DNA of 59,638 bases, the filler included, from Sphacelaria rigidula (lineage: Eukaryota): the NCBI GenBank assembly GCA_964200075.2. It is 9 parts of 9 records of this genome, joined end to end, with 100 filler letters (N's around TTAATTAATTAA, not from the genome) between each part and the next. Parts side by side here need not be neighbours in the genome. Positions count along the whole stretch, not along the records: positions 33,191 to 39,727 come from CAXNAA020019484.1; 8 more parts are not named here. One strand, 5' to 3'. The position numbers and the translations under genes are program-made. Below the pieces are notes generated by a model, which was not told where the DNA came from, ran no database searches, and saw only the letters and a list, made by a program, of their open reading frames with translations. Each line of letters begins with the position of its first letter. The first letter of the stretch is position 1. This document shows positions 6,539-53,101 of this stretch, in pieces.

Positions 6539-6638
6539 NNNNNNNNNNNNNNNNNNNNNNNNNNNNNNNNNNNNNNNNNNNNTTAATTAATTAANNNNNN
6601 NNNNNNNNNNNNNNNNNNNNNNNNNNNNNNNNNNNNNN
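6539..6638. other. Artificial contig spacer
   Basis: N44-TTAATTAATTAA-N44, with stops in all six frames. Confidence 0.99.
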
Positions 6639-13176: not shown

Positions 13177-13276
13177 NNNNNNNNNNNNNNNNNNNNNNNN
13201 NNNNNNNNNNNNNNNNNNNNTTAATTAATTAANNNNNNNNNNNNNNNNNNNNNNNNNNNNNNNNNNNNNNNNNNNN
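13177..13276. other. Artificial contig spacer
   Basis: N44-TTAATTAATTAA-N44. Confidence 0.99.
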
Positions 13277-19814: not shown

Positions 19815-19914
19815 NNNNNNNNNNNNNNNNNNNNNNNNNNNNNNNNNNNNNNNNNNNNTTAATTAATTAANNNNNNNNNNNNNNNNNNNNNNNNNNNNNN
19901 NNNNNNNNNNNNNN
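19815..19914. other. Artificial contig spacer
   Basis: N44-TTAATTAATTAA-N44. Confidence 0.99.
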
Positions 19915-26452: not shown

Positions 26453-26552
26453 NNNNNNNNNNNNNNNNNNNNNNNNNNNNNNNNNNNNNNNNNNNNTTAA
26501 TTAATTAANNNNNNNNNNNNNNNNNNNNNNNNNNNNNNNNNNNNNNNNNNNN
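26453..26552. other. Artificial contig spacer
   Basis: N44-TTAATTAATTAA-N44. Confidence 0.99.
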
Positions 26553-32252: not shown

Positions 32253-32305
<53 letters not shown>

Positions 32306-32420
32306 ATTTCCGCACGATAGCTCGATCTCTCGAAGCCGTGGTCACAGACGTAGACCCACCTTTCCAGTACCGTCACTACCATTGCTTCAATGAGATAGCA
32401 GCACTCTTCGAGCGGCATTT
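32253..32420 (-). mobile_element. (CAA)n-tailed 3' end of a LINE or SINE
   Basis: About 17 TTG units at 32253-32305. The adjacent CCGTGGTCACAG (32336-32347) is identical to a word near the RTE 3' end (29152-29163). Confidence 0.55.
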
Positions 32421-33090: not shown

Positions 33091-33190
33091 NNNNNNNNNN
33101 NNNNNNNNNNNNNNNNNNNNNNNNNNNNNNNNNNTTAATTAATTAANNNNNNNNNNNNNNNNNNNNNNNNNNNNNNNNNNNNNNNNNNNN
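33091..33190. other. Artificial contig spacer
   Basis: N44-TTAATTAATTAA-N44. Confidence 0.99.
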
Positions 33191-33279
33191 TTGGTTATTG
33201 CCGTCGTTCGGGGGGTCGGGGCGGTGAGGGGGGTTTGGGCGGGGGTAGGTTCGTGAACGGTCTACACGCTTTGTAACAG

Positions 33280-35870
33280 GCGGGTGTTCCGAAAGAGCGA
33301 GTTCTGATCAAAACACCAGCCACGTGGGCGGGGATCCGGGCGACGCAAATACTGGAGGCGGAAGGCATCAAGTGTCTTGTAACGCTTGTCTGCTCTGAGC
33401 TGCAGGGGCGTGCGGCTGCGGAAGCGGAGGCTTCCGTCATAGCCACGTGTGAGACTTGTTTTCATGCATTTTCTTCTTTTTTGTGAGCTGTCTTCGATCT
33501 TCCTTCCCTGTCCTTCCCTTTCCATCCTTTTCTCGAGTCTCTTTCGACGAGTGTTTCTGTTCTCTTTATCTTGACTACGTCTATCTCGCGGTCACGAATA
33601 CAATTTGCGCGGATCGCTTTATGCGCATCAATTACCCAACCAATCACTATAGCAAGGTGCGCCCGAAAGGAATACAGAACGGCGCCTCGGAACCCGAGGA
33701 GGCACCGTCCACTCTCCTAGGGCAGCCTGGACCTTTGGGTGTTTGGGTGGCACGTAATGGATGGCACATTGACCCTGTGCGAAGCAATTCCGTCTAGGTC
33801 ATGTGTGAACTCAAGTTGCACGGTCCCTTGAGGCACGCTGAACGCAGGGTGTGGTTTGCAAGAGATACTGTTCACGACCGGGACATTGGGGTCACGGTGA
33901 GCGCACCTGTTTTGAGATGTACACACGCCTTTGCCTGAGTTTGAGTCGCCGCAGTCTTGTTTGTACGTCTAGGCATTTTGCGATATCTCTGTTTTTGAAA
34001 GAATATCGTTCTTGGCATTGGCCATTAAAAAAGCACAAACTACCAATGTTGGACGAGGCTTGACTTTCGATGAGCAAGCCCTAGGCCTAGAATTGCCGAT
34101 GAAGCAACAGGAATAGTCTTGGGAGTACTGTTCTACTTACTCTGACGCAGCTTGCAGGGAGTCACCTGCACGGAGTACAACACCAGTAGCAGTTTCACCA
34201 TTCACCTGAAGTCCGCACTGTGCATAAGGGCGCAGTTTGCTCGCTCTACACACCAGCGCTATATGCAAACTTGTGTGTAATAAAAGGAGCTCCACACTAT
34301 CATCGTTTACCTTGTGAGCAGATGTGGGGCGCGTATCCGATTGGCACAAACAGAGAGCATGGGATGTGCCCTTTCCTGCCTCCGCAAGCGAAGATCCTGG
34401 CGTAGTCATGACCAATCGGTTACAGCATTTTGTCCGGGATCAGGGCTTGAGAACGGAGGTTATGGCGGCGAGTTTCCGCAGCGTGGATCAAGTAGCTGCG
34501 TTAGCCGGTTGCGACCACCTTACCATAGGTGAGGTGTGCGTTCTAATCGACACTTTGAGCCCTCGCCGTAGAGCAAGCACGACTGATGTCGCGCGAGGAT
34601 GGTATCCATTTGTGCCGCGAGTGGTTTCTCCGTTCGTGATCGACTCTGCTTCGGTTGATCATTGTGCAGAATCCCTTGTTCGGCACGAAAAGCACCCGAT
34701 AGTTCGTCACGAGGAATGCACCCCGTCCTCTTCTTCTAGTCTTGTGGTCGTTTCCCACGTGGATGAAAACGCTCAAGCTGTCGACAAGGAGCATGCGTGT
34801 ATCGTATTTCCCTGTCTATACATACAGTGTGTATGTATGTGTGTAGTTGCCTTACTTATCCTTCCCAAAAAGAAATCGAATGGACACTGCCGTCTTTGAT
34901 GCTGTAGGATTGACGCCACCGTGCGACGTCTAAAAGCTACAAAGAGGCGAAAGGTATCGTTCAGGGCGTTGATGGCCTAAGGGCCCGGTCTAATCACTCT
35001 GCTTGTTTCCTGTGCACGTTGTTGCCGCGGCGCCCCGGTGGTCACATTAGTGCAACTAAAACCAGCTTGGTTGAAAAAATGCGGGTTGGAATCCCGCGAG
35101 ATGCGGTCGAGTTTGTCTCTTCGAGGTATCTGATTTAACCCCAGTTGAAAACGTGGGGGCGTGAGAAGCAAATAACGTTCATTTTACGATAGTCGACGCA
35201 GTGCGGCAGTGTTGGTCATGATCCAATTCGCAATGTACCAAAATGTAACGAGGCGTGTGCCGACGGAGTGATGCCTTACTTGAGACCACAGACTCGTCCC
35301 GAGAAGGGGGAGGGGTTCAAAGTGTGGCGAAAACGAGAACGCGCGTGCCCCGACCTACTATACCGTGGATTCGGCGTTCGACAAGAGTACAGTAGGAATT
35401 CTGAGTGCTTTTTGAGAACGTGATATATGGGACCGCACTGCTATCCAGCAGCACTGCCTTGTTTACCGTGGCAGGCGCATGCAATTCTTCGATAACCACG
35501 TGCGGCTCGTGACACGAGCAAATCTGCTGCACAGCGCGTCGCAATTGCAACCTGACTGCCTGCAAAACTAATGTCCAACAGATAATGTTAGCCGTGGAAC
35601 GCGCCTTGTCCCTCTCCTACCGTGACAGCGCCGGCACTCATCGACGAATTGGCTGCAACTGCACCCATGGAAACGTTGGCCGATGTGCCGCACCCGGGGG
35701 CAATTTCAAGAGAAGCTCATCGATTTCCCGCGCAGTTGGATGAGAAATCGTTCTTGGAGTTTCTTGAAGCAGACTTGTGTGGAACGGACGTGCTGTGCGC
35801 AAGCATGGGGGATTTCGGAAGGGATACGGAGGCGTTGGAGAGTTGCATTTCTCAAGCTCTACAGTTGTAA
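33280..35870 (+). CDS. Transaldolase-family protein (TalB-type scaffold with FSA-like active-site residues), last three exons: 33280-33448, 34322-34528, 35629-35870
   Basis: Spliced translation [66 protein letters not shown]...EDPGV...[32 protein letters not shown]...* matches transaldolase motifs RILIK, TWxGIRA, VGRIxDW, EDPGV, MGASFR and LAGCDxLTIAP. Both introns are GT-AG with compatible phases. The 5' exons lie outside the contig. Confidence 0.93.
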
Positions 35871-39727: not shown

Positions 39728-39827
39728 NNNNNNNNNNNNNNNNNNNNNNNNNNNNNNNNNNNNNNNNNNNNTTAATTAATTAANNNNNNNNNNNNNNNNN
39801 NNNNNNNNNNNNNNNNNNNNNNNNNNN
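39728..39827. other. Artificial contig spacer
   Basis: N44-TTAATTAATTAA-N44. Confidence 0.99.
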
Positions 39828-46364: not shown

Positions 46365-46464
46365 NNNNNNNNNNNNNNNNNNNNNNNNNNNNNNNNNNNN
46401 NNNNNNNNTTAATTAATTAANNNNNNNNNNNNNNNNNNNNNNNNNNNNNNNNNNNNNNNNNNNN
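46365..46464. other. Artificial contig spacer
   Basis: N44-TTAATTAATTAA-N44. Confidence 0.99.
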
Positions 46465-53001: not shown

Positions 53002-53101
53002 NNNNNNNNNNNNNNNNNNNNNNNNNNNNNNNNNNNNNNNNNNNNTTAATTAATTAANNNNNNNNNNNNNNNNNNNNNNNNNNNNNNNNNNNNNNNNNNN
53101 N
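53002..53101. other. Artificial contig spacer
   Basis: N44-TTAATTAATTAA-N44. Confidence 0.99.

Follow-up and report, generated by a model that had tools for sequence, protein, structure and literature searches.

The Sphacelaria locus

The window analyzed here, 59,638 nt from the brown alga Sphacelaria rigidula, contains the 3′ part of a gene of the TAL_FSA family, which takes its name from transaldolase (Tal) and fructose-6-phosphate aldolase (FSA). The gene part occupies positions 33280-35870 of the plus strand and comprises three exons, all on that strand. Spliced together, they form an open frame of 618 nt (205 codons) that is stop-free up to a TAA, with AG/GT at the exon borders. Exon 1 (33280..33448) is internal and was delimited by its frame, its AG/GT borders, its match to the Pfam family PF00923 and its alignment with Escherichia coli TalB. 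It encodes ...VIAT and the first base (T) of a Tyr codon, and contains the codons for the Schiff-base Lys (33310-33312), for Leu at the position of TalB N154 (33376-33378) and for Ala at that of TalB S176 (33442-33444). Intron 1 (33449..34321; 873 nt, GT..AG) is in phase 1 and interrupts the Tyr codon. Exon 2 (34322..34528), likewise supported by PF00923 and the alignment, supplies the last two bases of that codon (34322-34323) and encodes (Y)VGRVSDWHK...EDPGV...MAASFR...GCDHLTI, including the equivalents of TalB R181 (34330-34332), S226 and R228. Intron 2 (34529..35628; 1100 nt, GT..AG) contains a high-copy repeat at ~35196-35326. Exon 3 (35629..35870) is the last coding exon: it ends ...QALQL, has its stop codon at 35868-35870 and encodes the C-terminal helices of long-form transaldolases. 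Residues 335-420 of the Ectocarpus siliculosus orthologue P0004 matched positions 35628-35858 (tblastn, E 4e-10), which agrees with an earlier assignment of these helices in a preliminary description of the stretch. Here and below, P numbers designate protein sequences used in this study.

The window consists of nine separate contigs of 6537-6538 nt each, laid end to end with N44-TTAATTAATTAA-N44 linkers between them. Each piece is a complete, short contig of a fragmented brown-alga assembly. The linkers lie at regular steps (6539-6638, 13177-13276, 19815-19914, 26453-26552, 33091-33190, 39728-39827, 46365-46464 and 53002-53101). The gene is on the sixth contig (33191..39727; 6537 nt, no strand assigned). 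The nine contigs are unrelated, and therefore nothing 5′ of 33191 is genomic context for the gene. The 5′ part is missing because the start of the contig cuts the gene, not because of a lesion. Searches of the whole window with P0004, P0279 and P0008 (tblastn) revealed no exons of the gene beyond the three described, and a Pfam scan of five other open reading frames (ORFs) near it yielded no matches.

Transcription and splicing

Splicing was evaluated using Logan contigs from four runs of two studies, all with the same coded organism; the runs are presumed, though not recorded, to be RNA. The junction 33448|34322, with unambiguous GT..AG borders, was present in one contig in each of the four runs. 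Similarly, each run had one contig spanning the junction 34528|35629 (mapped as 34526->35627, "cut +2"). The depth of the exons was approximately threefold that of the introns: 15-21 versus 5.75 in run X1 and 42-48 versus 14.9 in run X8. Skips bounded by GT..AG, together with the higher depth of the exons, are the pattern given by spliced mRNA. Because the first junction recurred in all four runs, the Tyr codon split as T|AT is real; the preliminary description had made its reading of this residue depend on that junction.

The NCBI partial model P0001 of S. rigidula (126 residues) was 100% identical to exon 1 and used the same first junction. Its leading Q corresponds to the CAG at the acceptor site of the intron, and the model ends at ..DHLTI, so that 35629-35870 is missing from it. 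In other brown algae, read-through ORFs (P0002, P0005 and P0006) run on as ..IATCE.., consistent with the same exon end. In all four runs, the exon 1 contigs carried 25 nt before position 33278 that had no match in the genome. This extension encodes ..RSIMAMYAE in frame and resembles the Ectocarpus sequence ..LVSTYSE that precedes AGIPRERVLIK. The transcript thus reaches a further exon upstream; the gene is no stump. It is real, transcribed and spliced.

These data bear on whether the gene could be a decaying or non-catalytic paralogue under relaxed constraint, the truncation at 33280 being that of a broken gene. Such a reading could draw on the presence of only the 3′ 205 codons in the window and on the partial NCBI model. 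We consider it very improbable: the truncation is a contig end, the RNA contigs lack both introns and run on, in frame, into sequence of an exon further upstream, and the 205 codons contain no stops. Moreover, six sequences of the algal clade described below, which are only 36-65% identical to P0013, retain the four distinguishing active-site residues and share 58 invariant columns that include all of the signature residues.

The repeat in intron 2 was visible in the same contigs. Between 35166 and 35353, contig depth rose to 127-318 versus 2-15 around it, and in all four runs the contigs entered unlike sequence on both sides. The segment at ~35196-35326 is probably a dispersed repeat or a piece of an abundant transcript from elsewhere.

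Active-site residues

The E. coli talB and fsaA genes were taken from the K-12 record, and their products were aligned with the window protein. The scores of exons 1 and 2 against PF00923 were 60.3 and 46.8 bits, respectively (cut-off, 27), and the spliced protein was 42% identical to TalB and 30% identical to FsaA. Its alignment to TalB K132-R181, which spans the Schiff-base Lys and the VGR motif, contained no gaps. At TalB positions 132/154/156/176/178/181/226/228, the window protein reads K-L-T-A-Y-R-S-R, TalB K-N-T-S-F-R-S-R and FsaA K-L-T-A-Y-R-S-K. Thus, Leu, Ala and Tyr occupy the positions of TalB N154, S176 and F178, and K132, T156, R181, S226 and R228 are kept, as is the EDPGV segment. 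The gapless alignment from the Lys of RVLIK to VGR, the C-L-V-T and I-A-T-Y-V-G-R readings and the retained phosphate-site equivalents had all been proposed in the preliminary description, and each was reproduced here.

The fourth residue that distinguishes FSA from TalB lies at TalB E96. In P0004 (422 residues), ..VPGRVCTQLD.. stands opposite ..STEVD.. of TalB, placing Gln at this position as in FsaA (Gln59). Two further Ectocarpus species (P0003 and P0011) also have Gln. Indeed, Gln was present in all seven clade sequences that cover the site (P0003, P0004, P0013, P0043, P0130, P0133 and P0134/P0279). A check of this position had been proposed earlier; it gave Gln in the orthologues, the Sphacelaria codon itself being outside the contig.

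Over twelve sites, P0004, the Tribonema proteins P0279/P0134, the Heterosigma protein P0130 and P0013, P0043 and P0133 share the signature D-T-N-Q-K-L-T-A-Y-R-S-R. The corresponding readings are D-T-N-Q-K-L-T-A-Y-R-S-K in FsaA and D-T-N-E-K-N-T-S-F-R-S-R in TalB. The orthologues therefore keep Asp17, Thr33, Asn35, Lys132, Thr156, Arg181, Ser226 and Arg228 (TalB numbering). By alignment, the clade orthologues carry the complete FSA-type set at the four discriminating positions (Gln, Leu, Ala and Tyr) on a long-form TalB fold. FSA-type changes on a TalB-type, intron-containing scaffold in an alga had been recognized before; the set comprises four residues rather than three.

Fold and structural relatives

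An AlphaFold2 model of P0013, built from a six-sequence alignment, had a mean predicted local distance difference test (pLDDT) score of 84.9 and a predicted template modelling (pTM) score of 0.80. Compared with long-form transaldolase chains, the model gave target-normalised template modelling (TM) scores of 0.82-0.91; 26 of the 27 listed chains reached at least 0.85. Root-mean-square deviations were 2.1-6.9 Å over ~320 columns and fell within 2.1-2.6 Å for 20 of the 27. The structures matched included those of E. coli TalB and of the mouse, human, yeast, Francisella, Oleispira and Prochlorococcus enzymes. Short-form Tal chains spanned less than half of the model, with query-normalised TM scores of 0.44-0.49.

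Among solved structures, the best sequence match of P0004 was 9QPK ("TalB mutant E96Q, F178Y, R300E"), followed by 4RZ6 ("TalB E96Q F178Y") and then 3M16, the transaldolase of Oleispira antarctica; wild-type TalB scored slightly lower. By sequence, the closest solved analogue of the algal protein is thus engineered TalB E96Q/F178Y. A search of the protein atlas returned only generic "transaldolase family" clusters.

Distribution, co-variation and phylogeny

A word-indexed search with P0004 listed 120 matches. In the full set of 129 proteins assembled up to that stage, A-T-Y preceded VGR in 5 and S-P-F in 116; the remaining 8 were truncated or missed by the regular expression. A profile of four clade members was then compared with 1.84 billion cluster representatives. 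The 150 best of its 5614 matches at E <= 0.001 were examined. P0279 is from Tribonema minus (Xanthophyceae), and P0130 is from Heterosigma akashiwo (Raphidophyceae). P0134 is transcript-derived and nearly identical to P0279. Among the 113 new proteins listed in a third, name-giving search, A-T-Y occurred only in P0279. The matches listed in that search included no variant from diatoms or any other named group, which is no proof of absence. On the sequences at hand, conservation of the gene extends from brown algae to Xanthophyceae (Tribonema) and Raphidophyceae (Heterosigma).

In the annotated Tribonema model, P0279, a 37-residue insertion lies between ..SFRSVDQ and VLAMRGACDH.. and does not occur in P0134. 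It is probably an intron retained in the annotation.

Co-variation at sites 96/154/176/178 was assessed in 149 new representatives, 145 of which had all four columns filled; the list is biased to the query profile. E-N-S-F was found in 119 of these best-listed 145 and Q-L-A-Y in 4 (P0130, P0133, P0134 and P0250). Rarer forms were Q-N-A-Y (6), Q-N-S-F (3), E-N-A-Y (2), Q-I-A-Y (1) and other combinations (5), and E-T-A-Y, E-L-A-Y, Q-N-S-Y and Q-N-A-F occurred as singletons. Representatives with Tyr178 had Ala176 in 15 of 16 cases, Gln96 in 12 and Leu154 in 5. The corresponding frequencies among those with Phe178 were 1, 4 and 0 of 125. Fisher p values for the association of Tyr178 with Ala176, Gln96 and Leu154, calculated ignoring kinship, were 4e-18, 4e-11 and 1e-5, respectively. 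In these alignments, Gln, Leu and Ala co-occur with Tyr across independent lineages more than expected by chance.

A quick IQ-TREE analysis was performed using 76 rows: 23 variant-signature sequences, 51 hand-picked canonical sequences, TalB and FsaA. Neither partial sequences nor ~100 other canonical representatives entered the analysis. In the resulting tree, the six algal Q-L-A-Y proteins formed one clade (Shimodaira-Hasegawa-like approximate likelihood ratio test [SH-aLRT] support, 93) with two subclades, one containing Ectocarpus, P0133 and Tribonema (95) and the other P0013, P0043 and Heterosigma (99). Of the 19 long-form rows with Tyr, those outside the clade were scattered over the tree, with minimum state changes of 8, 3, 5 and 5 at sites 96, 154, 176 and 178, respectively. 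The end branch of the FsaA outgroup was 5.88; the root is untrustworthy, and the basal position of the algal clade was not taken as ancestry. Convergence with FSA is plausible because a TalB-type scaffold bears the FSA-type residues.

The Q-L-A-Y-like signature is not unique to the algae. P0250 (Q-L-A-Y) and P0224 (E-L-A-Y) formed a separate long-form pair (SH-aLRT, 98). The closest solved relative of P0250 was human/mouse transaldolase (257 bits versus ~213 for E. coli TalB). From these sequence affinities, the pair seems to represent an opisthokont-type lineage with the same switch, possibly fungal at a guess. Other long-form Tyr178 proteins, mostly Q-N-A-Y, were scattered (P0165, P0168, P0227, P0239, P0252, P0262, P0277, P0159, P0161, P0216 and P0241). 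For prokaryotes, a profile of ten Tyr-bearing long-form proteins was compared with genome contigs, giving at least 600 stretches. No named prokaryote with an A-P-Y form was present among 80 of at least 590 relatives, all 80 being canonical S-P-F, and this is no evidence of absence.

N-terminal extension

The clade proteins carry N-terminal extensions. Up to the conserved D-x-x-D motif, the N-terminal part measures 90 residues in Ectocarpus, 42 in Tribonema, 36 in P0133, 58 in P0013 and 33 in P0043, compared with 13 in TalB. Four of the five members with an N-terminus have a hydrophobic 12-residue window there, with a Kyte-Doolittle mean of 1.8-3.2. In Ectocarpus, the hydrophobic stretch is followed by ..ATG|FASS.. 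and then by 63 residues containing 24% Ser+Thr, 7 Lys/Arg and 3 Asp/Glu. A Phe and a basic stretch rich in Ser and Thr follow the hydrophobic part in Ectocarpus and in one other clade member. In the bipartite plastid presequence of ochrophytes, which the Ectocarpus sequence resembles, the cleavage site of a signal peptide is marked by an aromatic residue or Leu, and a transit-peptide-like stretch follows. An N-terminus of this signal-peptide-like kind points to possible entry into the secretory system or the complex plastid. Three points count against such targeting: P0043 has no hydrophobic N-terminus, the extensions of Tribonema and P0133 are very short, and the assignment is based on a hydrophobicity scan and a reading by eye.

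Comparison with known enzymes

The algal clade resembles FSA of the FsaA/FsaB/TalC type in its identical Asp, Thr/Asn, Gln59, Lys85, Leu107, Thr109, Ala129, Tyr131, Arg134 and Ser, and PF00923 is common to both. It differs in scaffold: FSA is a short protein of ~220 residues (FsaA, 220) that forms a decamer, whereas the algal proteins have ~320 mature residues with TalB-type insertions and C-terminal helices. Where FSA has Lys168, the algal protein has Arg, as in TalB. Unlike those of FSA, the algal gene is eukaryotic and intron-bearing and encodes an N-terminal extension. With canonical TalB (E. coli; NCBIfam TIGR00874; human, yeast and cyanobacterial enzymes), the clade has in common the long-form fold, the Schiff-base Lys and the phosphate site; unlike canonical TalB, it has replaced Glu96, Asn154, Ser176 and Phe178. 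The engineered variants TalB F178Y (3CWN), E96Q/F178Y (4RZ6) and E96Q/F178Y/R300E (9QPK) have the TalB fold, and those with E96Q combine Gln96 and Tyr178 as the algal clade does. They keep Asn154 and Ser176, whereas the natural clade, ~37-38% identical to them, adds Leu154 and Ala176.

To our knowledge, FSA-type aldolases have been described from prokaryotes only. We found no description of an algal, stramenopile or other eukaryotic FSA-like enzyme in the literature searched, which scarcely covers subscription journals. According to a review, Guerard-Helaine et al. (2015, ChemCatChem) screened 313 species, all prokaryotes, and found six Tal/FSA proteins annotated as transaldolases to be aldolases (PMC7230286). 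Like the members of the algal clade, those enzymes are natural proteins annotated as transaldolases; they are aldolases and prokaryotic. The aldolases of that 2015 screen reportedly carry Tyr in place of Phe.

Predicted function

The equivalents of the Gln59-Thr109-Tyr131 triad around Lys85 of FSA are Gln, Thr, Tyr and Lys in the orthologues, and Thr, Tyr and Lys are present in the window protein. In FSA, this triad holds the catalytic water (PMC13259622). Both the window protein and the six-member clade have Leu and Ala at the positions of the Leu107/Ala129 donor pocket. From the Gln-Thr-Tyr set, the Leu/Ala pocket and the TalB phosphate site, we infer an aldolase that releases a three-carbon (or two-carbon) donor. 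The gene product would be a long-form, TalB-type member of the Tal/FSA superfamily with FSA-type acid-base machinery, acting as an aldolase that releases its donor rather than transferring it; we put the probability of this reading at approximately 65%. In the proposed mechanism, Gln, Thr and Tyr would hold a catalytic water, allowing the Lys-bound three-carbon enamine to be protonated and released. The three-carbon unit would not be passed to an aldose phosphate. The enzyme would thus be a true aldolase, interconverting fructose-6-phosphate (F6P) with dihydroxyacetone (DHA) and glyceraldehyde-3-phosphate (GAP). Hydroxyacetone or glycolaldehyde could serve as alternative donors with the same chemistry. 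The Leu/Ala donor pocket would be of the apolar FSA type, and the retained Arg/Ser/Arg site would imply a phosphorylated acceptor or product.

Several observations weigh against this assignment. The best family model for the clade was NCBIfam talAB (TIGR00874), a transaldolase-type model, with 180-266 bits versus a cut-off of 396.2 that was not passed (P0004, 220.7; P0013, 266.3; P0279, 180.5; E. coli TalB control, 555). NCBIfam fsa (TIGR00875) gave only 65.8-90.3 bits versus a cut-off of 245.95, also not passed (FsaA control, 279.1). The clade therefore missed both equivalog cut-offs, whereas the TalB and FsaA controls passed those of their own models. The TalB-type scaffold and phosphate site are themselves transaldolase-type. 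The Sphacelaria codon for the E96 position is on an exon outside the contig; Gln is the reading in the orthologues. TalB F178Y presumably keeps some transferase activity, and a mixed or transferase activity would be compatible with the sequence. By the curated models, the clade formally belongs to neither family, pairing a transaldolase-type scaffold with an FSA-type active site.

A rival reading is that the protein is still a working transaldolase (Enzyme Commission number 2.2.1.2), that is, a divergent organelle isoform in the non-oxidative pentose-phosphate/Calvin set whose four substitutions only tune kinetics. The talAB model fits best, the fold is that of long-form TalB, and there is no change at the phosphate site or in the Lys, Asp and Thr residues. 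Databases name the orthologues "transaldolase B" (P0004) or "Transaldolase", the plain label that had been expected of automated pipelines. We nevertheless regard a working transaldolase as unlikely. All four of the residues that separate Tal from FSA are FSA-type and are conserved over three algal classes, and the scores are far under the talAB equivalog cut-off. According to PMC13259622, which cites Stellmacher (2015), residue swaps between FSA and TalB, Glu/Phe versus Gln/Tyr, interconvert the two activities. According to PMC3962226, F178Y alone increased the addition of DHA to GAP to form F6P by 70-fold in TalB, with an efficiency approximating that of FSA, which bears out the DHA-aldolase activity attributed to this variant in the preliminary description.

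The identity of the substrate is a separate matter. The same chemistry, as aldolase or transferase, could be directed at another natural ketose derivative, with F6P as a side substrate. Candidates would be a 1-deoxy-ketose phosphate (from hydroxyacetone), arabinose-5-phosphate (from glycolaldehyde) or a sulfosugar of plastid sulfolipid turnover. The apolar Leu/Ala pocket is consistent with this possibility. According to PMC3962226, FSA prefers apolar donors of the hydroxyacetone type over DHA, TalB F178Y prefers DHA, and the preference is shifted by A129S in FSA or S176A in TalB F178Y. Bacterial Tal-family enzymes act on 6-deoxy-6-sulfofructose, according to PMC7491151. The possible plastid targeting of the algal proteins would place them at the site of sulfolipid synthesis. 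Sulfolipid is made in the plastid. A different natural substrate nevertheless appears improbable: the known sulfofructose transaldolase shares 41.7% identity with its counterpart from Thermoplasma acidophilum, whose 218-residue chain is of the short and not the long form, and the Arg181/Ser226/Arg228 phosphate site of the algal clade is unchanged from TalB.

If the protein is an aldolase, as we favor, it is a eukaryotic, long-form and probably organelle-targeted representative of an already known enzyme type, mis-named in databases at present. A wider proposal, which we advance tentatively and at somewhat less than even odds, is that brown algae, xanthophytes and raphidophytes own the first natural eukaryotic aldolase of the F6P/DHA type. 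This would be a dimeric enzyme on a TalB-type scaffold, routed to the complex plastid or the compartments around it, where it would link free two- and three-carbon carbonyls (dihydroxyacetone, hydroxyacetone and glycolaldehyde) to the hexose-phosphate pool independently of phosphorylation. The Gln/Leu/Ala/Tyr module would then be a recurrent switch from Tal to aldolase, including in an opisthokont-type lineage.

Although valued as biocatalysts, FSA-type aldolases still have no clear physiological role. A conserved, expressed and probably organelle-targeted form in three classes of photosynthetic stramenopiles would be the natural counterpart of engineered TalB E96Q/F178Y. If the prediction is true, it would provide a eukaryotic system for asking what purpose an F6P/DHA aldolase serves, and it would mean that a "transaldolase" now counted in metabolic reconstructions of brown algae probably does not catalyze that reaction. 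The way in which the four residues co-vary offers a simple sequence rule for re-annotating proteins of the Tal family.

We considered a connection with mannitol metabolism or with the sedoheptulose bisphosphatase (SBPase) missing from the diatom plastid (PMC2173943) and set it aside; no diatom member was found, and there was no support for it.

Other observations

Many canonical transaldolases of ~390 residues (P0057, P0070, P0281 and others) have C-terminal EF-hand domains (PF13405, PF13499, PF13202 and PF00036). The named sources of these EF-hand-bearing proteins are Synechococcaceae and Cyanobium. P0012 (666 residues) consists of two canonical transaldolases fused in tandem. In the window, the contig preceding that of the gene contains a (TTG)n microsatellite of ~18 units at ~32253-32306, which follows an AT-rich, low-complexity stretch.

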